A stretch of 64,000 nt of DNA from Escherichia coli (GTDB taxonomy: Bacteria; Pseudomonadota; Gammaproteobacteria; Enterobacterales; Enterobacteriaceae): the NCBI RefSeq assembly GCF_003018115.1, contig NZ_CP027457.1, one strand, 5' to 3'. This document shows positions 14,134 to 46,815 of this stretch, piece by piece (within the stretch, counting starts at the first letter, position 1; each line of letters starts with the position of its first letter). The notes beneath the pieces are model-generated. The model saw nothing but the letters and a program-made list of their open reading frames with translations. It had not been told where the DNA came from and did not search any database. The position numbers and the translations under genes are program-made.

Positions 14134-14259
14134 ATGTCTGCACCTACATTGCCTGATGTCAGAACAGTATTTTGATTAATTGCCAGGGTTACAATGGCAC
14201 AAATACGGCACAGGAGGAAACGTGGTGTATTTAAATATGGGGTAACTACTTGATTTAAA

Positions 14260-14335
14260 TGGTGCCGATAATAGGAGTCGAACCTACGACCTTCGCATTA
14301 CGAATGCGCTGCTCTACCAACTGAGCTATATCGGC
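14260..14335 (-). tRNA. thrW: tRNA-Thr (anticodon CGU)
   Basis: Reverse complement reads GCCGATATAGCTCAGTTGGTAGAGCAGCGCATTCGTAATGCG...TTCGACTCCTATTATCGGCACCA; cloverleaf with CGT anticodon and CCA end. Confidence 0.9.
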
Positions 14336-29828: not shown

Positions 29829-30569
29829 ATGCGTAAAATCGCATTAATTCTTGCGATGTTGTTGATCCCGTGCGTTTCGTTTGCCGGTTTGCTGGGCAGC
29901 AGTAGCTCGACCACGCCAGTGAGCAAAGAGTATAAGCAGCAGTTGATGGGATCCCCTGTCTACATCCAGATCTTCAAGGAAGAACGTACGCTCGATCTCT
30001 ACGTCAAAATGGGCGAGCAATATCAACTGCTCGACAGCTATAAAATCTGTAAATATTCCGGCGGCTTAGGGCCAAAACAGCGTCAGGGCGATTTCAAAAG
30101 CCCGGAAGGGTTTTATAGTGTCCAGCGTAATCAGTTAAAACCAGACAGCCGTTACTACAAAGCGATTAATATTGGTTTCCCCAATGCCTATGACCGTGCG
30201 CATGGTTATGAAGGGAAATACCTGATGATCCACGGCGATTGTGTTTCCATCGGCTGCTACGCAATGACCAATCAGGGTATTGATGAGATCTTCCAGTTCG
30301 TTACTGGTGCGCTGGTGTTTGGTCAGCCGAGCGTGCAAGTGAGTATTTACCCGTTCCGCATGACCGACGCCAATATGAAGCGCCATAAATATTCCAACTT
30401 TAAGGACTTCTGGGAGCAACTGAAGCCGGGTTACGACTACTTTGAGCAAACCCGTAAGCCACCGACCGTTTCTGTGGTCAATGGCCGTTACGTGGTCAGC
30501 AAGCCGTTAAGCCACGAAGTGGTGCAGCCACAACTGGCATCAAACTACACGCTCCCCGAGGCAAAATAA
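29829..30569 (+). CDS. yafK: Periplasmic L,D-transpeptidase-fold protein YafK
   Basis: 246 aa with signal peptide; YkuD-like catalytic core [12 protein letters not shown]. Confidence 0.9.
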
Positions 30570-35444: not shown

Positions 35445-36212
35445 GTGCCTGGTTTGAAGATTACGCTTTTGCAGCAACCACTGGTGTGGATGGATGGCCC
35501 TGCCAACCTGCGTCATTTTGATCGTCAACTGGAAGGTATTACCGGGCGCGATGTGATCGTTCTACCGGAGATGTTTACCAGCGGCTTTGCCATGGAAGCG
35601 GCAGCTTCGTCGCTAGCACAAGATGACGTAGTGAACTGGATGACAGCTAAGGCGCAGCAGTGCAATGCGCTGATTGCAGGCAGTGTTGCATTACAAACGG
35701 AGTCTGGTTCGGTTAACCGCTTTTTGCTGGTTGAGCCGGGCGGCACGGTACATTTTTATGATAAGCGTCATCTGTTCCGCATGGCAGATGAGCATCTACA
35801 TTATAAAGCGGGCAATGCGCGAGTGATTGTGGAATGGCGCGGCTGGCGTATTTTGCCGCTGGTGTGCTACGACTTACGTTTTCCTGTGTGGTCGCGCAAT
35901 CTCAACGATTATGACCTCGCCCTGTACGTCGCCAACTGGCCTGCTCCGCGCTCTCTGCACTGGCAGGCATTGCTGACGGCCCGCGCGATTGAGAATCAGG
36001 CGTATGTGGCGGGATGCAATCGCGTCGGCAGCGATGGCAACGGCTGCCATTATCGCGGTGACAGCCGGGTGATTAATCCACAGGGCGAGATTATCGCTAC
36101 TGCCGACGCGCATCAGGCAACGCGCATTGATGCGGAGCTGTCGATGGCGGTGTTAAGGGAATATCGCGATAAGTTTCCGGCATGGCGGGATGCGGATGAG
36201 TTTAGGTTGTAG
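35445..36212 (+). CDS. yafV: Omega-amidase / nitrilase-family hydrolase YafV
   Basis: GTG start giving [22 protein letters not shown]; carbon-nitrogen hydrolase E-K-C triad region. Confidence 0.9.
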
Positions 36213-36239
36213 TGAGTGGGTGTTGTGTTTAGGGCTGGG

Positions 36240-36680
36240 GAGAGTCGGGGAAGACTACGAAAGCCCGCTCTCCTGCGACCACTTTTATCATAGGAGTGTG
36301 GAAGTGCTTTTCCATCAATCGCGATGACGTCTTTGTCATTTGATGAATGGCAGTCACGCATCCAGTTAATAAAGCACTCGTGAAATTTTGCAGGACTGAT
36401 ACAGGATACAACTCTGGCAATGGTATCGTGAACAGGAATACCATTTTCAAAATCACCATATTGCTTCAAAAAATCGAGATGTGTTTCCCCAAAATCCTCT
36501 ATATCTTCCCAACCTTCTGCACCAGAAATAACGGCACAAATAGTCAACAGTAGAATATCCGATAATTTATGTTCCACGTTCCAGGCTTGTCTGTAATCGG
36601 GGATAACAGAAATATGTTCCATCAATTTTTTAAGTTCCATTTTGTTCTCCTTAATTATGTAAGGAGTATTTGATCCAGGG
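36240..36680 (-). mobile_element. Internally deleted ISAs1-family (H-repeat) element; encodes only first ~120 aa of transposase
   Basis: Near-identical to 37420..37860 (same antisense ORF on both copies); protein diverges after ...DKS; shared end motif ACGAAAGCCCGCTC at both elements. Confidence 0.75.
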
Positions 36681-36685
36681 CAAGA

Positions 36686-37822
36686 TTACGAAAGCCCGCT
36701 CCCCGCAAGGACTGACGCCAGATAGTTTCTGTCCATGGCTGCTTTTCGCATCTTACGTCTTAACCCTGCCTTGAATACCTTATCATTCGTCAAAATATTA
36801 ATAGCAATGTGCCGTATCCCTGAAAATAATTCCGCTGCATTTCCTCTTCTTATTCTGCAGTCGTCTTCATTCATTACCACGTCCAGGCGCCAGTGCAGCT
36901 TATTTTCCACGTGCCAGTGATTTCGGTTCGCTGTGGCGAACTTCTCTGCAGTTAAATCAGCAGAGCTGATATAATATCTGACCGTCATTTCGGGTTCTTT
37001 CTTTTGTTCTGCTATTATTGACCGAAAGGAGACTGCCACGCATAATTTCTTCAGCCCTTTCCATTCAAACGTGAAATCAATAAGTTCATCAGGGACATCG
37101 CAAACAATATGAAGACGGATTTCTTCTCTGCCGTGACTCTTTTCACTGATTGCGTAACTGTCATGCTCTGGATTATTTAATTCTTTCAGCGGAAATTTTT
37201 CCTCAAAGGCTTTATTTAGCCGCCCCTGGTTTCCTTTTACCGCGAATAAATAATCACCTCCCTGTTTTTGTATCTTCTCTGCAATATCTTTCTGGCAACC
37301 CATCGCATCAGTTGTGATGATTTTTCCTTTAATATCCAGCATGTTAAGAAGTTCTGGGATAGCTGTAATCTCATTAGATTTCTCATCCGTCCTGATCTGT
37401 CCGATGACCAGACTGTGCATTGTTGAGAACGCACTAATGACATGAATCGCTCCCCTGCGGCGACTCTTGTCATAAGAGTGCCGGAGCGTTTTTCCATCAA
37501 TTGCAATGACGTCTTTATCATCTGAAGAATGGCAGTCACGCATCCAGTTAATAAAGCACTCGTGAAATTTTGCAGGACTGATACAGGATACAACTCTGGC
37601 AATGGTATCGTGAACAGGAATACCATTTTCAAAATCACCATATTGCTTCAAAAAATCGAGATGTGTTTCCCCAAAATCCTCTATATCTTCCCAACCCTCT
37701 GCACCAGAAATGACGGCACAAATAGTCAACAGTAGAATATCTGACAATTTATGTTCTACTTTCCAGGCTTGTCTGTAATCGGGGATAATAGAAATATGTT
37801 CCATCAGTTTTTTAAGTTCCAT
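36686..37822 (-). mobile_element. ISAs1-family transposase (H-repeat-associated protein), complete
   Basis: 378 aa [60 protein letters not shown]... DDE transposase typical of Rhs-associated H-rpt. Confidence 0.9.
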
Positions 37823-38290
37823 TTTGTTCTCCTTATTTATGCAAGGAGTATTTGATCATATATAAGCTATGAAAAATAGTTTTAGGTAATAAGGAATATC
37901 TCAATTATTGAACATTTAGCGCGAATTATTTAGTACAAAAAGTGTACTTCTGATGACCTTTCCCTGCTCCAAAGTCTTCTAAAATCAACAATGTAGACTC
38001 TTAATTATATTTATCAACACAATAATCTATCCTATTACTATCTTGACAAGAGAGAACCGTTTTTTATTTAAATATATGATACACATCATTAAATATATAA
38101 CCATACTTTTTCATAAGGCAATCTAACTTAGCTCTTAAATCACCAAAACCCATCACACCATAACATCTAATAGCCATTGCCACACGTCACCATGGATTTA
38201 TTTCCACCTGCAATTACTTCGTCCTAACTTTAATTTAATCTCAAGAAGCATTAAGATCTCAATAGCGAGCTTAATACTTCTTGAATAATA

Positions 38291-38668
38291 TCACTCCTGA
38301 CCAAAATTTTTCCACACTAATGCATGAGACTTTGATTTGTCACCCAGAAATTTACTTACATCTTGCCAAAGTAAAGAATTGCTATCGGTCGCAGTGACTA
38401 TTGCCTCTATAAGCCCTGTAGCTACAACTGTGGCCAATTCATCATCAAGCGAGACCATACCATCTTCGACATGTTTAAATATTTTTTCTCTTTCAATATC
38501 CCCCATTTCATAAAAATTTTTTACAATCGTTTTTCCAACCTGAGAGAACAACATAACCACCGGTGGCGTTTCTGGATGCCAGTATTCATTAGCTAATGAG
38601 ACTGTCTCAGACAAAACAGTGGAAAATGATGCCATTTTTTCTATATAACTAGCAATATATTGGTTCAT
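38291..38668 (-). CDS. Putative Rhs immunity protein (RhsI), family unassigned
   Basis: 125 aa acidic ORF whose ATG shares one base with the Rhs stop (TAATG); AT-rich like the Rhs CT. Confidence 0.7.
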   Translation of the reverse strand: MNQYIASYIEKMASFSTVLSETVSLANEYWHPETPPVVMLFSQVGKTIVKNFYEMGDIEREKIFKHVEDGMVSLDDELATVVATGLIEAIVTATDSNSLLWQDVSKFLGDKSKSHALVWKNFGQE

Positions 38669-41600
38669 TACTTGCCTCCCAAAGCATTCTGTAAATCCTG
38701 AAGAACGTTTTCTGCTGCTGCTCGATCCCCTGGAGATGCTGTTGGATTCTTATCCAACCAATCCTGTAAAGCCCTTGTATAATCCTGTGCTTTCAATACA
38801 TGTCCTCTACCACCAACTTTTTCACCTGTGGCCAATTCATAACGAACAGCATCTGCTGTGCTTCCACTTCCTACTTTTGCATTTGGCCGATAAAGATCGT
38901 CTATAATATTTTTCAAATTTGAATCTGTAACGTCGGGTTTTCCCATTTTCTGTCGCAATTCATCTTTATACCGTTCATGCTGCATACGATCCCTTGCGCT
39001 ATTCTCATCTTCTGGTCCCCATCCTCCCGGGCTTCCCGTACTGCCGCCGGCCAGGCAGTTCTTCTCTTCATCCGTCAAATCCTTCCCAACATTCGGCTGA
39101 CTCCCTGACGAATTATCATTCTCATGTGGGCTATCTAAAGGACAACTACTGGTCCAGTAACACATTTCAGCCTGAGAATTTATTAACTGCCCATCGCTCA
39201 GAGCCTTCCCGGCACGCCCATCATTAGCGAGAAGGTCATATCCCATTGGCCCAGCGACCACAGCCATTGCTCCAAGAGCAGGGGCAGCAGACGCCATAGC
39301 CGCCGTGACTGCATCAAAAGTCGCCGCCCCACCCGAAAGTAACGCCCCCCCAAATTCTGTTCCTGTTACTGTTGTGGCAGAACCAAGAACCAGTGTCTCA
39401 CCAGACAACCCAAGAGGATCCCCCCGCTGCACCGGGTTCAGCGGATACGCATACAGGTTCCATCCCCCCTTCAGCCCAATGGGATCCTGGGTGATATAGC
39501 GTCCCTGCAACGGATCGTAGTACCGGTTCCGGTTATAGTACAGCCCCGACTCCTCATCATACTGCTGCCCCGGCAGACGGAGTGACTGTTGAAGGTGCTG
39601 CGCGCTGGTTTCGCCCAGCAGGTTTCCCCACTCGTCATACTCCCCCTGCCACGCCGTTTCCCCTTCCGGGCTGATGAGCGCCAGCGGCAGTCCCCGGTGG
39701 TCGCAGTGGTAAAGATGAAGTTTCCTCTCCGGGATGTATTCCGCCTCCAGCTGTGCGGCCATCTGCTCCGCCGTCAGCCCGCACTGCGCAAGCCATGCCT
39801 CACTCTCCGCACTCACCGCTCCCGCGCGCAGTTCCCGCTCCAGCCTCCCCAGCATCACCGACAGCTCCGCCGGTAGCGTCACACCCGTGTCCTCCTGCAA
39901 CACCTCCGCCAGGCTCCGGTGCCGCGCCTTCGCCTGTTCGCCATTCTCTGTTTCGATTCTCAGGAGCGGCGTGAAGCTCCCCGGCTGGTATACCGTCTGG
40001 ATACGCGTGGTGCCGGTCTGTATCGTCGTCAGCCTGTCACCGTCCCACCCGTACCATGTCACCTCCGGTTTACGCGACAGCGACATCCACCCCGTCAGGT
40101 CACGCTCCCGCCGCCATACCCGTTTTCCCGTCCGGCGGCCCAGCGGGTCATAGAGGTACCGGCTCTCCACCTGTGGTTCGCCGTGCTGTATCCGCGTGTA
40201 GAACACCAGGCGGTGCTGGCTGTCGTAGTGATAGTGGTGGGTGCGCTCGTCGTGCATCCGGATAACCCCTTCCGGGATACGGTCCGTCTTCTCCGCCAGC
40301 CTGCCGTATTCATCGTGGCGGTAGACATAGTGCGCATCCTCCGCGATGCGGTTATCCGGCCACGCCGTGAGCGTGCTGTCCGGGTGCAGTTCCGGGTCCG
40401 GCAGCCGGTTTCCTGCCGGGTCCGTCGCATACGGGATATCAATGTCCAGGTTCGCTGCCGTGGTGTGGACGCCCGTCAGCCTTCCCGTGCCGCTGTAACG
40501 GTACTCCCGGCTCTCCTGCGGGCCGCTGATGCGGATTAGCTGTCCGTTGTCGTTCCACGTATACTCACGGTCAAGCTGCGGAAGGTTCAGGTGCCTGCTC
40601 CGGAGCTGGCCGCTGGTATTCCAGGCGGTGGCAAGTTCATATGCCTCCCCGCCGAAGCTGCGGGCCGTCTCACGGTGCAGCCGGTCCCGCGTGTACTCGA
40701 CCAGCGGCGTTCCGCCCAGCTTCATCCCCGCAAGATAACCGCTGCCATACGTCAGCCACTCCACCGGCGGCAGACCGTCCGGCTCCTGACGGGTCGCCAG
40801 CCCCTGTTCGCTGTACGCATGCCCCGTCTCATGCTCCCACAGCATCTCCCCCGTCTCCGGGTTCTCCACCGTCTGCCGTTCGCCCGTCAGGCGGCCTTTA
40901 TCGTCATAGCCGTAGTGGACCGACACGCGGTGGCCTTCACTGGTATGGCTGAGGGTGGTTAACCACCCGTGCTCATCATACTGCCACTGCTCTGCCGGGT
41001 CGCCGTTCACCGTCCGGTGCGTGATGCGGTCCGACGCATCGTAGTGCCAGAGGGTGATAAGCCCCTCGTCTTCACTCTGCGTGAGTTTTCCGGTCAGGTC
41101 ATAGTGGTAACGTTGCGTCCGGCCGTCAAAACCGCGCTGTTCAGTCAGCCTGTCCACCGGGTCATACCGGAACGTGGACTGGCTGCCGTTCTCGTTGGTC
41201 AGCACGGTGATGCGCCCGGCAGCGTCATACCCCATGCTGCGCGTAAGACCGCCTTCCGTCACACTCACCGGACGCCCGTGTTTATCATATTCGATGGTGC
41301 TGCGTTTACCGTCCGGTGATATCGTTGCTGTCAGGTCGCCTGCGGCGCTGTACTCATAACGGATTTCACGCCCCTGCGCATCCTTCTGACTGACCAGTTG
41401 CCCACGCGGGTTATAACTGCTGTAAGTGCTGATGCCTTCCTCCCGGTGAACGGCGATTTGTTGACCGTACCAGTCATACTCATACCGCGTCGTGTACCCC
41501 GAGCAGTCCGTGAAGGCCCGAAGCTGACCGTACCGGTTTCGCGTTATTCTCCGCGTCACCCCGGTTCCGTCTTCCACCGCGCCGGGCAGGCTACTGCGGG

Positions 41601-43173
41601 GGGAGTCATAAAACCAGCGCGTAATGTTACCGTTGCGCGAGGTCTCTTCTGCCAGTCGGCCCTGACGGTCATATTTCCGGTTGCTGCGTAAACCATCCGG
41701 ATATGTCACTGAAGTCAGTTGCAACTGGCTGTTGTAACCATACCGTACCGTCCTGCCGTCCGGCAGTATCACTGAAGTCAGCTTTCCAGACGCCATATGC
41801 AGCCGGTACTCCGTCCGCCGCCCCGCCGCATCCGTCTGCGCCTTCAGCCTCCCCGCCTCATCATACTCGCTGCGGGTGATGCTCCCGTCCGCATGTTCCT
41901 TCTTCACCACACGCTTCAGGCCACCTTCGCCCTCCGTGTACAGCACCTCCCGCCGGTTCAGGCTGTCCGTGATGGTCACACGGTCCTGCCCGTACTCAAA
42001 GCGGTAGTCCAGCCCCTCCGGGTTGACCTGTTCTGTCACCCGACCGGTATCATCATACCGGTAGCGGCTCTCCGGCCTCCCTGCATAATGGTGCGCCACC
42101 ATCCGCCCGGCGTGCTGCACATCATAAGTAAACCCGCGCACCTGCGTCCCGCTGCGGTCATACACCGCCCGCAGTTCTCCGCTGGCCGTGTACGTGTAGC
42201 GCGCCAGCGGCGCAGTCGGCTGTTCATCCGGGTATGCCGGGTCGTGTGTCAGCCACACCGCCTCCAGCCGGATACCGTTATCGGCACCGTACTCTGTACC
42301 GGCGGGCAGCGTGTCGGGGAAAGCTGAAGAAAAGGAAGAAGAGGAAACAGAACGGGGACTGGCCGGGGAAGATAAGGAAGACTCGCGCTGTTTACGGAAG
42401 GCTTCCGCCCGCTGCGCCTGTGTGGTCAGCGCCAGGTGAAAACGGCGGCCCGCGCCGTCCGTCACCCCCGTCACCGCGCCCGCCACGTCACCCTCCGCCG
42501 CCCTGTGAAAGGCCAGCGTCCGACCAAAGCCATCCACCACGCCCGTCAGCACCCGGTATGCGGGCGGCTCCGGCGGCAGCACCTCGTCCGCCTCCGGCAC
42601 CCGCTCCGGCCAGCTGAGCACCAGCCACTGCCCGGTTGTGCTGACAGCCATCATATAGGTGTGTGGACTCAGACGGACCGCTTCCGGCAGCGCCCGCCAG
42701 AGCCGGGCCAGCGGGTGGCCTTTGTGTTGTTTCAGCACCCCACCCCTTGCCAGCCAGAGTGACTCGCTGCGGCTGTAGCTTATCTCGCCGGGAAACAGCG
42801 GCTCAAAGTGAATGCTCCTGCCGCCGTTGTCGTTGAGTATCAGTTCCCGCTCATGAATCTGTAAGCGGATATCAAAGGGGGCTTTCCAGCCGGGGCCAAA
42901 CACCCCCACCGGCGCGGGCGTCCTGGTCCGGTAACTGCTGTAGGCACGGGAAAGAATGAACGGCAGCGGGCCGGGCAGCGCAAGGTCCGTCTCGCCCGGC
43001 AGCACCTTCGCACCCAGTAGCGGGTTCACCGGGTTAGCATAGGTAATCCCTCCCGGACACACCGAGCAGGCCACTCCCGTCGGCGCACCTATCAGCACCC
43101 CCGCTGAACCCTGCACAATATCCAGTCCCTTGCGGGTCATATCACCCTGCCGCGCCGCCGGTTTTCCGCCCAT
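38668..43173 (-). CDS. rhs: Rhs-family polymorphic toxin: N-terminal PAAR-like region, YD-repeat core, variable C-terminal toxin domain
   Basis: 1501 aa; N-term [12 protein letters not shown]...[10 protein letters not shown]; many YD repeats; core ends [27 protein letters not shown]; ~245 aa CT encoded at 38671..39405. Confidence 0.9.
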
Positions 43174-43248
43174 GAATCAATTCCTTCTGCTTTTAATATG
43201 GTTTATCTGGTCACTGCACCAGTTCCGTTTTGATTTTTTGCGCCTGAC

Positions 43249-45390
43249 TCAAAATTGCCGCATATCCGGCATTCCGGGGGGTAAATCTTTCGGCACAGGC
43301 GCATCCGGTACAGGTTGTGTGGCACCACAGTTCCAGTTAATCACCGGCGCATCACCGTTCACATCCGACTCCCCTTCCAGATGAATGTGCGTACCATTAA
43401 GAAATATGCTTCCGTCCTTCGTCAGCACCAGCCTTGCCTTACCACAGCAGAGTTCAAGATGCTCACCGGCAGAATAAACTGCTGTTTGTCCGGTGTTTTC
43501 CTTCATCGTCTTGCCCACCGAGAAGGTGACGTTATTCCCTACATTGACGCTGTAGCCCATTCCCACCATCAGTGATTTATGCAGCCCTACCTGTGAGGAC
43601 TGCAACAACGCCACCGAGGTATTCATAATGCCGCCTACCGTCGTCTGATACGCCACACCCACCGTCAGCGCACGAATGATCCCCACCTTTTCAACCTGGT
43701 TTGATCCCACTTTGATAATCTGGTTACTGCCCACCGTTTCCACCTGGTTGACACCAACCGTCTGTATCTGATTAACGCCAATGTTCTGGATCTGGTTATT
43801 GGTAACGGTGATCGCCTGGTTGTTACCTATTTTTTCGGCATGGTTGTTTATCACATCAGTGGTGCGGTTATTCAGCACCTCGGTGTTCATGTTCTTCTGC
43901 GCGTGGATGTAGACCTGTTCTTTCCCTGTCGCATCGTCAAACTTCAGTTCATTAAACCCGCTGCCCTTATAGGTTTTCGAACGAATGGTCATCTGCGTCT
44001 TTGTTCCCGGCAGGCTGCCGGGTGTGCGGTTTTCCTGGTGGTAGGTGCGCCCCATAATGATCGGCTGGTCCGGATCGCCGTTGAGGAAGTCCACAATCAC
44101 CTCCTGACCCACACGCGGTATCGCCAGGTTACCAAACCCGGTGCCTGCCCACGCCTGTGCCACACGGATCCAGCATGAACTGTCCTGGTTTGACGGGTTA
44201 TAGCGGTCCCAGTTAAATTTCACCCGCACGCGACCATGTTCGTCGCAGAAGATTTCCTCGCCTGCCGGTCCCGTCACGACGGCGCTCTGCGGGCCATCCA
44301 CCAGCGGTTTCAGCAACGGCTGTGGTCGCCATGTTCTGTCTGCCGGTATTACCGCAAAATGGTTATCCAGCGTGGTGCCTGAACCCCTGCGTCCCGGTAC
44401 CGCCTGCGGCTGTTCGCCGTGAAGATCGCTCGCCACCACCTGCCATTCCCGGTTCAGGTTCGCCTGCGGATGCCCCGTCAGCACAATTCGCCGTCCCGGC
44501 CATATCTCCGGCGAACGGCTTGTTCCGCGCGCCACTTCTGCGTTGTTTCGCCAGCCATCCATCTGCCAGCGGGCAAAGTTCTGCCCGTGGGCACCCTTGA
44601 AACGTCCGGGGTAGTCATACACTTCATACTGTGTGCGCTGGTAATCCTGGTACTGGCCTTCCTGATCAAAACGCCCTGCCCAGCCGGGTCGTTTAAAGGT
44701 GTAGTCTTTGGTCACCACGGAAGAAGGGCGGATTTGTGCGCTGTAGCGAAACTGGCTGATGCAGAGGGTGCTTACCTCGGTACGGGTGTTCGGATTCCAG
44801 GGGATCTCAAAGGACTCCGGCAGATAACGCACGGTATCGCACAGGACCAGGCTCTGGTCGGTACTTTTTTGCGCGTGCTCCTCATAAAAGAAGATGCCTT
44901 CCTCCGCCGCCATCCGGCACAGGAAATCGTAATCAGTCTCACCGTACTGGACACAAAACTCACGGGAAGGATGCGGTTCACTGAACAGCGGACTCCACTC
45001 GGTCACCCCGTTTTCCTGCAATATCGTGCCGAGGATGCTTTTGATGTCCTCGTTCTGGAAGATACGGAAGTTCTGGCGCAGCCCTGTGCGCCACAGCGGC
45101 GGGCATACCTTCATGCTGTACAGCTTCTGGTTTTTGTCGTTCTCCCCCAGTTCAAACCAGGTCACCACACCTTTCACCCGGCGCTGTACGTCATCGCCCT
45201 GCCATATCGTCAGGTAGGCCATTTTGTCGAGGATCTGCTGGAATTCAAGGGAGAGAAACTGCTGGCTGACCAGAGAGAGAGCGAGGGAAAAAAGCGAAGA
45301 GAGTGACTGGTTCAGATGAAAGGAGACCACCGCAAAAGCATCCGGTGGCAGGCCGTCCACTTCCAGCGTGAAACGTAATCCGGTTGACAT
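43249..45390 (-). CDS. vgrG: Type VI secretion spike protein VgrG
   Basis: 713 aa; gp27/gp5-like VgrG; 75 bp upstream of rhs. Confidence 0.9.
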   Translation of the reverse strand: MSTGLRFTLEVDGLPPDAFAVVSFHLNQSLSSLFSLALSLVSQQFLSLEFQQILDKMAYLTIWQGDDVQRRVKGVVTWFELGENDKNQKLYSMKVCPPLWRTGLRQNFRIFQNEDIKSILGTILQENGVTEWSPLFSEPHPSREFCVQYGETDYDFLCRMAAEEGIFFYEEHAQKSTDQSLVLCDTVRYLPESFEIPWNPNTRTEVSTLCISQFRYSAQIRPSSVVTKDYTFKRPGWAGRFDQEGQYQDYQRTQYEVYDYPGRFKGAHGQNFARWQMDGWRNNAEVARGTSRSPEIWPGRRIVLTGHPQANLNREWQVVASDLHGEQPQAVPGRRGSGTTLDNHFAVIPADRTWRPQPLLKPLVDGPQSAVVTGPAGEEIFCDEHGRVRVKFNWDRYNPSNQDSSCWIRVAQAWAGTGFGNLAIPRVGQEVIVDFLNGDPDQPIIMGRTYHQENRTPGSLPGTKTQMTIRSKTYKGSGFNELKFDDATGKEQVYIHAQKNMNTEVLNNRTTDVINNHAEKIGNNQAITVTNNQIQNIGVNQIQTVGVNQVETVGSNQIIKVGSNQVEKVGIIRALTVGVAYQTTVGGIMNTSVALLQSSQVGLHKSLMVGMGYSVNVGNNVTFSVGKTMKENTGQTAVYSAGEHLELCCGKARLVLTKDGSIFLNGTHIHLEGESDVNGDAPVINWNCGATQPVPDAPVPKDLPPGMPDMRQF

Positions 45391-45549: not shown

Positions 45550-45592
45550 GTAATACAAAAACAGCATCCGGCCTGATAGCCGGATGCTGTTG
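45550..45592 (-). terminator. rho-independent terminator/attenuator after hcp
   Basis: Perfect 11-bp stem CAGCATCCGGC/GCCGGATGCTG with 6-nt loop, followed on the minus strand by TTTTTGTATT. Confidence 0.7.
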
Positions 45593-45599
45593 GCTTAAC

Positions 45600-46118
45600 T
45601 TATGCTTCCAGCGGTGCGCGCCAGTCGTCGGCACCGGAGGTGCCAGATTTGACGTGTTCCCATTCAATTTTGCGGTAGGCCAGTGAAACTTCGAGCAACT
45701 GGGTGAACTCGCGTTTCGCCGGGTCCTGGCAATGCGGCATATGCAGTTTCATATCGACAATCGTCGAATCAGTCAGGCGGGTAGTGAAATAATGCTCCTG
45801 TTTGCCTTCCACAGAGGTACGCCACCAGTGAAGTTCAGTGGTTGGCAGCATTTCGCCGGAGGCCAGTGCGTTGTACATCAGCGGAACCGCTTTGTTCAGC
45901 GCCACGGTAAAAATGAAAGGCTTGTGAGCACGCTGACCCGCAGGCTGACCGGACTGAGGATCGGTCGGGACAGTAACGTTATGCAGGAATTCCTGCACCA
46001 GCATCTCGTCTTCGTGCCCCTGCACATAGATGTTGCCGACAGAATCAGCGGTAAATGCACCTGCAGTAATATTTCCCTGGGTCTGACCAGTGATGGAGAT
46101 ATAACACGGTGTTGGCAT
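45600..46118 (-). CDS. hcp: Type VI secretion tube protein Hcp (TssD)
   Basis: 172 aa MPTPCYISITGQTQGNITAGAFTADSVGNIYVQGHEDEMLVQ. Confidence 0.9.
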   Translation of the reverse strand: MPTPCYISITGQTQGNITAGAFTADSVGNIYVQGHEDEMLVQEFLHNVTVPTDPQSGQPAGQRAHKPFIFTVALNKAVPLMYNALASGEMLPTTELHWWRTSVEGKQEHYFTTRLTDSTIVDMKLHMPHCQDPAKREFTQLLEVSLAYRKIEWEHVKSGTSGADDWRAPLEA

Positions 46119-46412
46119 TTGTAAACTCCTTGTTAACGTGGTTAATTACTACTTACAATGACCTGCCGTTAATCCCAGACAGGCAGATGCAGCTCACTTC
46201 ACGGAACCGCATCATTTTTCAGTATTTTTTACATACAAACCGAGCTAGAATTTACGGTTGTCGTAAAAACTATTTTTAAAATCATTAAATCTCTTATTCA
46301 GCAATAACTTAATAATATATATCTGGATAACCATACCCAACTGTTCAAAGTCCGTATTGCCTCCATAAAATGGCCAAAGCTGAATCATGAATAAATATTG
46401 TATTTATCCTTT

Positions 46413-46432
46413 CTGAATTATCATTTTGATAA
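46413..46432. promoter_or_regulatory. Fur-box-like AT hexamer repeat in hcp/tssB divergent control region
   Basis: GAATTATCATTTTGATAATT resembles GATAATGATAATCATTATC. Confidence 0.3.
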
Positions 46433-46815
46433 TTTTTGAGATATTCCTTAAAAATACCCACTTAATCAATCACAAAACAAATATATAAACAAGCAATCAT
46501 TAGATTAGCTTATGTTTAATAAAATTATTATACAATTCAATAAGATGAATAAAAAACCCTATATTTAAATTATTGCCATAATACACCTGACGCGAATTAC
46601 ACAGGTTCACACAATCTATTTAACGCTTGCAGAATACCCCTCTTTACGATCGATAAAAAGTCCTTTTCTTATTTATTTTGAAGCGTAAAATGCGGGGTGA
46701 TGAAGGAGTGGTGATTTTATTTTCACCGCCATTAGGGCGGCATTGCCGATATTTTTTTGCGGTACAAATATGCCGTGTTCATGGCCTGTACGAGATAACA
46801 TGACGGATCACTTTT

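Follow-up and report, generated by a model that had tools for sequence, protein, structure and literature searches.

An rhs gene that follows vgrG directly, with no chaperone or adaptor gene between the two, raises a simple question: is a gene missing here, or should none be expected? We addressed this question for a locus of Escherichia coli that lies in a stretch of 64,000 nt (contig NZ_CP027457.1, assembly GCF_003018115.1); the whole stretch is called the window below. The locus encodes VgrG, the spike protein of a type VI secretion system (T6SS), and an Rhs protein with a PAAR-like N-terminus. A preliminary description of this DNA had pointed out the gene order and the lack of the Eag/DUF1795 chaperone gene that precedes many Rhs effector genes. 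Four features are needed at the outset.

43249..45390, minus strand: vgrG, the spike gene, 713 aa (TIGR03361, E 1.9e-188; also Phage_GPD, Phage_base_V and Gp5_trimer_C)
43174..43248, minus strand: spacer between vgrG and rhs, 75 nt, with AAGGAA at 43181-43186, 7 nt 5' of the ATG
38668..43173, minus strand: rhs, an open reading frame (ORF) of 1501 aa (ORF call and translation)
38291..38668, minus strand: rhsI, the predicted cognate immunity gene, 125 aa, 37% G+C, with its ATG overlapping the stop codon of rhs (TAATG)

The gene order was as described. The gap between vgrG and rhs is exactly 75 nt, and rhs has its own AAGGAA ribosome-binding site at the spacing given above. No adaptor or chaperone gene lies between the two genes, since the gap holds no ORF; we also found no convincing terminator in it. 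An earlier rhs start, which could add PAAR repeats to the protein, was ruled out, as a TGA stands in frame two codons 5' of the start codon. In VgrG itself, the beta-helix runs to about residue 685 and a Pro-rich tail of about 25 aa comes behind it, and neither an effector nor an adaptor domain was found in its 713 aa by profile matches or by inspection of the sequence. The two genes share one reading frame, and only the TGA of vgrG and the second TGA intervene (43171-43251). Natural VgrG-Rhs fusions exist, and one (PDB 8qja) was among the matches of our structure search. The separate and the fused layouts may be interconverted by gain or loss of stop codons.

We concluded that a vgrG-rhs pair without a chaperone gene is an ordinary arrangement, already described for the T6SS2-Rhs clade. 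The new elements at this locus are an unannotated toxin-immunity family and a CdiA-like modular C-terminal region, and nothing else. As a whole, we consider it quite likely that the protein is a T6SS2-Rhs polymorphic toxin of the yafV-aspV/yafT island, which docks on VgrG through a single PAAR repeat, does not depend on Eag, carries a two-part CdiA-like toxin and is neutralized by the RhsI immunity protein.

The first line of evidence concerns what Eag proteins do. The transmembrane domains at the N-terminus of prePAAR effectors are what Eag/DUF1795 chaperones bind, in an effector-specific manner; such domains are present in all of the approximately 6000 prePAAR effectors, which occur together with Eag (PMC7773334). 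The prePAAR motif AARxxDxxxH (PF25799) was not found in the window Rhs, which has K at the position of the His and gave no match at E<=10. An N-terminal transmembrane segment was not found either: the 19-residue Kyte-Doolittle mean (KD19) reached a maximum of 1.44 in the first 150 residues, which are of a Gly-rich, beta-type sequence. As a positive control, we used the vgrG-eagR-rhs island of E. coli O157 Sakai (ECs_0605-0607), where the prePAAR motif, the N-terminal transmembrane segment and the eag gene are all present. Its Rhs protein, ECs_0605, carries the prePAAR_I motif AARLGDEIQH (PF25799, E 5.8e-6) and a hydrophobic segment with a KD19 of 2.13, and ECs_0606 is a PF08786/DUF1795 protein (E 2e-27). 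Thus, the window Rhs would need no Eag gene, because it has neither a prePAAR motif nor an N-terminal transmembrane domain to be shielded.

We then considered the surroundings of the gene. A tblastn search of the whole window with the E. coli EagR protein (ECs_0606) gave a best E value of 0.9. For annotation, we relied on another E. coli genome, which is collinear with positions 6545-64000 of the window and 98-99% identical to it from position 30000 onward (the T6SS gene names used here are also taken from it). Across the collinear part, neither a DUF1795 gene nor any adaptor gene is annotated in this syntenic genome. The search for a DUF1795 gene that had been proposed earlier thus came out empty within the window.

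The literature also separates two kinds of Rhs. In two later papers (PMC6730261, PMC7216683), Ma et al. 2017 is cited as setting the eagR-linked Rhs apart from the Rhs of T6SS2 clusters and the "neighbourless" Rhs (Rhs-Nb). According to the same papers, the T6SS2-cluster and neighbourless proteins form one clade, apart from vgrGO1-eagR-rhs. The linkage of vgr and rhs has been on record since the 1990s. Given the contrast with the O157 control and the published clade without Eag, the missing chaperone gene is therefore the expected state for this clade and no anomaly. The class I prePAAR Rhs proteins (ECs_0605/ECs_0606 of O157, Rhs1/SciW of Salmonella, RhsA/EagR1 of P. protegens) resemble the window Rhs in having a cage, a polymorphic C-terminal toxin and a link to vgrG, and presumably also in delivery by the T6SS spike. 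However, the prePAAR motif, the transmembrane region at the N-terminus, the fuller PAAR domain and the eag gene that separates vgrG from rhs are theirs alone. The comparison of the window Rhs with an eagR-linked Rhs of the same species gives a rule for when an Eag gene is to be expected: when a prePAAR motif and a transmembrane domain are both present.

The N-terminus of the window Rhs comprises three parts.

43087..43173, minus strand: single PAAR-like repeat, Rhs residues 1-29 (PF05488 below threshold; aligned to PAAR structures)
43033..43086, minus strand: putative tether, Rhs residues 30-47 (by analogy with residues 30-47 of the N-terminal fragment of Tse5, Tse5-NT)
42805..43032, minus strand: DUF6531, the N-terminal plug of the cage, residues 48-123 (PF20148, E 2.9e-18)

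The preliminary description had called the N-terminus PAAR-like, and this holds for the motif: the signature P-A-A-R-x-G-D is literally present (KPAARQGD, residues 4-11). It does not hold for a complete domain. PF05488, whose cutoff is 27 bits, gave 14.9 bits for a 130-aa query and 17.7 bits for a 51-aa query; the match covered residues 2-29 only. The full-length Rhs did not match PF05488 at E<=0.01, and the precomputed Pfam annotation of 120 family members lists DUF6531 and nothing else. Residues 1-29 align to the last of the three repeats in known PAAR proteins (residues 67-93 of 93 in V. cholerae 4JIV_D; 70-98 of 99 in SalCis10). A second PAAR-like motif was not found in the Rhs protein, nor in the six frames of the window or of the syntenic island. 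Judged by sequence, the N-terminus is one PAAR repeat and not a three-repeat PAAR domain. The domain check that had been suggested earlier thus recovered the RHS core, which marks off a variable C-terminal region, while the PAAR domain stayed below the Pfam threshold.

The best match of the whole protein in the Protein Data Bank (PDB) was the cryo-EM structure of Tse5 from P. aeruginosa (8CP6, E 5e-117). The homology to Tse5 starts exactly at P48 (PVNPLLGAK here, PVNPMLGSK in Tse5), and residues 48-167 align to residues 1-116 of Tse5 chain B (E 1.8e-15). In Tse5, a cut at K47|P48 sets residues 1-47 apart as a 5-kDa fragment, which enters the cage through the DUF6531 plug with its residues 30-47 and is disordered over residues 1-29 (PMC10684867). 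This fragment is PAAR-like and needed for secretion (PMC10684867), and has also been called "cryptic PAAR-like" (PMC7376260). Tse5 is secreted in association with VgrG1c and is without N-terminal transmembrane regions (PMC10684867). The window Rhs shares all of this layout with the Tse5 (PA2684)/VgrG1c pair, namely a PAAR-like N-terminus of 47 aa, a DUF6531 plug, a shell, a link to vgrG and no N-terminal transmembrane region. Given the common layout, we expect residues 1-29, 30-47 and 48-123 to play the same parts as in Tse5. Residues 1-29 are presumed to be the VgrG-binding element, residues 30-47 would thread into the cage, and a cleavage is predicted, by analogy, at N47|P48. Tse5 differs in three respects. 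Its N-terminal fragment is without the literal P-A-A-R tetrapeptide, which is present in the window Rhs. Its C-terminal part is a 16-kDa pore former, whereas the window Rhs has a two-part region of 245 aa with an unrelated helical toxin domain. Finally, the core of the E. coli protein exceeds that of Tse5 by about 90 residues, among them the region of a Ser-rich loop.

A bolder proposal is that the whole E. coli/Tse5 class of Rhs docks on VgrG by one third of a PAAR domain, that is, by a single repeat of 27-29 residues, and not by a PAAR cone. We regard this as rather unlikely. If it were true, the tip of the spike would be capped asymmetrically, or by up to three Rhs N-termini in trans, and either kind of capping would be a T6SS loading geometry that has not been described before. 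Since the island contains no other PAAR-like sequence, this T6SS would then have no cap but the PAAR repeat. An AF2 model of an artificial threefold concatenation of the repeat was uninformative (pLDDT 32.8, pTM 0.20), and no inference was drawn from it.

Over its first 45 residues, the window Rhs is almost the same as RhsA and RhsD of K-12. Among the 120 family members, variation in the PAAR-like repeat was concentrated at three residues within residues 11-16 (43126-43143). The vgrG-linked Rhs and its orthologs read TRKGLD, and the unlinked copies of the K-12 type read TQYGG(S/P). These variable positions may decide which VgrG pairs with an Rhs protein.

Two further features belong to the body of the protein.

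39406..43173, minus strand: Rhs core with the YD-repeat cage, residues 1-1256, GC-rich (63.5% G+C; NF041261, TIGR03696, eleven RHS_repeat matches)
42325..42381, minus strand: Ser-rich low-complexity loop, residues 265-283, whose length varies among Rhs paralogs and orthologs

Residues 1-1256 correspond to positions 1-1261 of NF041261, the equivalog profile of the E. coli RHS element core, with 2513 bits against a cutoff of 2000. The YD/RHS repeats were found in 11 stretches (PF05593, E 1.1e-73; TIGR01643, E 3e-47). The Rhs-associated core occupies residues 1179-1256 (TIGR03696, E 3e-23), contains the motifs DPIGL (D1230) and DPLGL (D1252) and closes with the PxxxxDPxGL pattern, beyond which the variable C-terminal region begins. 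Identity to the K-12 Rhs proteins collapses directly past L1256, and autocleavage is predicted after this residue.

An excess in length over the Rhs proteins of K-12 had been noted. The protein is indeed longer, with 1501 aa against 1377 aa in RhsA and 1426 aa in RhsD. Since the core matches the 1261-position profile end to end, its length is ordinary; most of the excess is held by the region after DPLGL, which has 245 aa here and about 120-165 aa in K-12. The Ser-rich stretch is real as well, but it is not an insert. At the equivalent site, both RhsD (SSLSSSDSSRPLSAS) and RhsA (a shorter version) of K-12 have a Ser-rich loop that is shorter than in the window Rhs, and an ortholog of 95% identity is three residues shorter. 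It is thus a length-variable loop of the whole family and not peculiar to the window Rhs. A 9-bp unit repeated 2.3 times lies beneath it (42326-42346). The long antisense ORFs of the core were also judged correctly as not being genes: we counted ten plus-strand ORFs of at least 80 aa within the core, where G+C is 59-66%, and none of them is annotated by RefSeq in the syntenic genome.

The window Rhs shares the NF041261 core with RhsA and RhsD, at 65-69% identity overall and near-identity over residues 1-100, and the locus has the layout of a classical Rhs element, with a GC-rich core, an AT-rich tip, a small downstream ORF and an H-repeat. The K-12 copies differ in having another C-terminal toxin/immunity pair and no linked vgrG. 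The core has 63.5% G+C, the toxin domain 42% and rhsI 37%. This drop, together with the patchy occurrence of the toxin-immunity module, is classic C-terminal displacement.

The region behind the core can be divided as follows.

39097..39405, minus strand: pre-toxin module, residues 1257-1359, 103 aa, with an Ala/Gly-rich hydrophobic stretch and a Cys pair, C1338/C1344
39004..39096, minus strand: linker, residues 1360-1390, 31 aa, matching the C-terminal region of CdiA (CdiA-CT) of UPEC536 (5j5v/5j43, E 2.5e-7)
38671..39003, minus strand: C-terminal toxin domain, residues 1391-1501, 111 aa, 42% G+C (AF2 five-helix model; profile family)

The 245-aa region splits at the motif PNVGKDLT...GGWGPEDE. 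In other E. coli Rhs fragments, the pre-toxin module (98-99% identity) precedes three different toxin domains; with the linker included, identity is 97-100% up to the point where three unrelated C-terminal domains begin. Conversely, the 111-aa toxin domain (71-78% identity) was found behind unrelated pre-toxin modules in the Rhs of Salmonella and E. coli, and behind unrelated modules again in the CdiA of Pectobacterium, Yersinia, Erwinia and Pantoea. On this comparison of sequences, the linker is a junction between modules that assort independently.

The same organization is known from CdiA. In the CdiA-CT of UPEC536 and the orphan CdiA-CTs of Erwinia, Pectobacterium and Yersinia, a variable module is followed by a linker of the form PN[IVL]GKDLT...GGW[GE]P.DE and then by a toxin, and CdiA proteins also carry, after VENN, the same 111-aa toxin domain with the same immunity family. 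The toxin domain of CdiA-CT UPEC536 is the Ntox28 tRNase. Unlike the window Rhs, which has a cage on a T6SS spike and the motif DPLGL, CdiA is a filament of the type V secretion system (T5SS) with the motif VENN. A further difference is that the pre-toxin module of the window Rhs matches no characterised entry domain. The match to UPEC536 (E 2.5e-7) is due to the linker. A known entry domain of the FtsH/PtsG type, which might have been read from this match, was rejected, as the similarity is concentrated in the linker.

The pre-toxin module did not match any known entry-domain family in Pfam or NCBIfam at E<=10. It holds the most hydrophobic stretch of the protein (KD19 maximum 1.73), and the hydrophobic stretch and the Cys pair recall the cytoplasm-entry domains of CdiA (PMC9424206). 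By this analogy, we consider it a candidate membrane-translocation ('entry-like') module. Another explanation is that it is a packing or spacer element that keeps the toxin unfolded in the cage, or is itself a membrane-damaging toxin, and not an entry device at all. The missing entry-domain match and the essentially linker-only similarity to CdiA-CT536 fit this explanation, as does the fact that the C-terminal part of Tse5 is itself a hydrophobic pore former (PMC10684867). However, the module is not tied to one toxin domain, and in this it behaves like the entry domains of CdiA; the Cys pair and the linker are typical of enterobacterial CdiA-CT regions; and the downstream immunity gene tracks the 111-aa toxin domain and not the pre-toxin module. 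A spacer or membrane-damaging role thus seemed possible but doubtful, and we keep the entry-like role as our candidate.

In RhsA of K-12, the stretch of ~40 residues that comes right behind DPLGL (VFPRPFPLPIPWPKSPAQQQADDNAAKALTKWWNDTA) is similar to the pre-toxin module of protein P0007 (VLPGPFFLPFPWLKSPVQQEADANANAAKTLTKWWNETS), in which the pre-toxin module is followed by the linker and the 111-aa toxin domain. Two-module C-terminal regions may be general among E. coli Rhs proteins. A literature search that combined Rhs-CT, entry domain, CdiA-CT and type VI found no paper among the literature covered.

The toxin domain is strongly conserved. Its AF2 model has five helices (pLDDT 91). Its invariant residues include Y38, G47, S48, R54, E56, H68, W82 and D93 (add 1390 for Rhs numbering), and its conserved motif ends in H..K...GDRAAAEN. 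When its profile was searched against 1.84 billion cluster representatives, 2221 matched at E<=1e-3, 1418 of them at E<=1e-10. The domain is always C-terminal, and it is carried by Rhs, CdiA (VENN), PAAR and WXG100-like proteins in Proteobacteria, Actinobacteria, Planctomycetes and Acidobacteria, with about 60% identity between phyla. There is no Pfam or NCBIfam model for it, and a sequence search of the PDB with the domain profile returned nothing meaningful. When the toxin domain, the pre-toxin module and the immunity protein were compared with Pfam and NCBIfam at E<=10, we obtained only noise (Rv0078B, E 0.02; DUF7674, E 9e-4, below its cutoff). The 111-aa domain may define an uncharacterised family of enzymatic toxins that is used alike by T5SS, T6SS and the type VII secretion system. 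At low confidence, we would guess that its target is cytoplasmic, possibly a nucleic acid or a nucleotide.

The small gene that overlaps the end of rhs follows this domain into other secretion systems. Homologs of rhsI lie directly 3' of the same toxin domain in an orphan CdiA of Erwinia (46% identity, E 1e-40), in a metagenomic PAAR-toxin (33%) and in a WXG100-type protein of Nocardioides (25%). The conserved pairing of the two genes supports the 125-aa ORF as the cognate immunity protein. The complete toxin-immunity module is present in 125 of 5426 E. coli genomes, either on the main Rhs or as an orphan fragment, and it is 100% identical across several strains. At the T6SS2-Rhs locus, the C-terminal region is polymorphic. 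Large, strongly conserved and accompanied by a conserved immunity family, this toxin family lends itself to the search for a new toxin activity.

These results can be put together in a model. By homology to Tse5 and RhsA, the YD-repeat core closes as a cage around the C-terminal region, with DUF6531 as the plug at its N-terminal end. The aspartyl-protease motif, as in the rest of the family, would cut off the C-terminal region after L1256. The 47-residue N-terminus might act like that of Tse5, residues 30-47 as a tether in the cage and residues 1-29 as the part that docks the cage on the tip of the VgrG encoded upstream. As neither a prePAAR motif nor a transmembrane domain is present, Eag/DUF1795 would be dispensable; the sole strongly hydrophobic segment lies inside the C-terminal region and could be shielded by the cage itself. 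The delivered 245-aa region would be a two-part toxin of the CdiA-CT kind, in which the 103-aa module and the 31-aa linker carry the 111-aa domain. It would cross the inner membrane and reach a cytoplasmic target, and in sister cells the 125-aa product of the overlapping gene would probably neutralize it.

Several points weigh against this model. Secretion, VgrG binding and both cleavages are argued from homology and inference. A single PAAR repeat of 27-29 residues is by itself unable to build the three-lobed PAAR cone. The entry role is an analogy, and the similarity to CdiA-CT lies in the linker and not in a known entry domain. The same N-terminus is found on four Rhs proteins of K-12, which is without any T6SS, so the conservation of the motif is no proof of current use by a T6SS. 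In addition, the window ends inside tssM, and the integrity of the whole T6SS is beyond its reach.

Some of these points could also be read to mean that the Rhs is a selfish or relic element, which merely adjoins vgrG, as the K-12 copies do without a T6SS, and is not a working T6SS effector. Besides the almost identical N-terminus of RhsA and RhsD in K-12, the insertion sequence (IS) elements at the flanks of the locus and a frameshifted VasL in the closest complete genome agree with this view. However, the rhs ORF is intact and translationally coupled to its immunity gene, and the toxin-immunity module is identical across strains, as stated above. The tight hcp-vgrG-rhs string is widespread: at least 80% of the 10.2-kb stretch from hcp to yafV is present in 1545 of 5426 complete E. 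coli genomes (28%). The window Rhs is also the only PAAR-like element of the island, and T6SS2-dependent killing by Rhs-CTs has been reported for E. coli. We therefore consider a relic improbable.

We consider it very improbable that the protein is a canonical PAAR-domain effector which depends on some chaperone or adaptor (Eag, DUF4123/Tap or DUF2169) from a gene elsewhere in the genome. In favour of this idea, the analysis covers 64 kb of the genome, eagR can sit at other E. coli loci (Sakai ECs_0606), and some E. coli Rhs-CTs are reported to require vgrGO1 and eagR (Ma et al. 2017, cited from later papers). However, the window Rhs has no full PAAR domain and no prePAAR_I match, and its N-terminal KD19 peaks at 1.44, whereas the Eag-dependent control reaches 2.13. 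Eag binds exactly such transmembrane domains and does so effector-specifically (PMC7773334), Tse5, the closest solved relative, has only a short PAAR-like fragment without transmembrane regions (PMC10684867), and along 6545-64000 of the window the annotation of the syntenic genome contains no adaptor gene.

The remaining features describe the setting of rhs within its island.

45600..46118, minus strand: hcp, the TssD tube protein gene, first gene of the hcp-vgrG-rhs-rhsI string (PF05638, E 5e-31; TIGR03344, E 1.7e-61)
45560..45591, minus strand: terminator-like hairpin in the gap between hcp and vgrG, with a 14-bp stem, 8 G-C pairs and a following T run (consensus scan only)
36686..37822, minus strand: intact ISAs1/ISEc1 transposase (H-repeat), 378 aa (NF033564, E 2.6e-124; syntenic annotation)
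36113..36640, minus strand: second, degenerate ISAs1 copy (pseudogene in the annotation of the syntenic genome)

The preliminary description had taken the protein as a PAAR-Rhs effector. The family matches agree with an Rhs polymorphic-toxin effector, and by gene order it is coupled to hcp, vgrG and a T6SS cluster. The four genes hcp, vgrG, rhs and rhsI are probably co-transcribed. The gap from hcp to vgrG measures 210 nt, and the strong hairpin in it may damp read-through, which would leave hcp in excess over vgrG and rhs. On the plus strand, from 46.8 kb, follow tssB, tssC, tssE, tssF, tssG, tagH, tssJ, tssK, tssL, tssH, vasI, tssA and tssM. The island is bounded by yafV on one side and by yafT/aspV on the other. 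The intergenic region between the divergent hcp and tssB (46119-46815) is AT-rich (36-40% G+C), with several sigma-70-like matches on both strands, and it is likely the control region of the island.

At the other end, the classical Rhs element is closed by the H-repeat transposase. We considered an orphan rhs-CT/rhsI cassette in the segment from rhsI to ISAs1 (37823-38290) and rejected it, as this segment is AT-rich and has no ORF of at least 40 aa. The two ISAs1/H-repeat copies stand in tandem (36113-37857). They have a 410-bp repeat in common (36266-36675 and 37448-37857, 93.7% identity), and the degenerate copy diverges from the intact one after about 110 residues. Farther away, the thrW site (14145-14335, with the tRNA-Thr CGT gene at 14260-14335) is without an island in the window. 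In strain TUM13936, which is otherwise collinear, this site is occupied by an insert of 6.7 kb that encodes an AbiEi/AbiEii pair and an RNA-directed DNA polymerase of 1069 aa.

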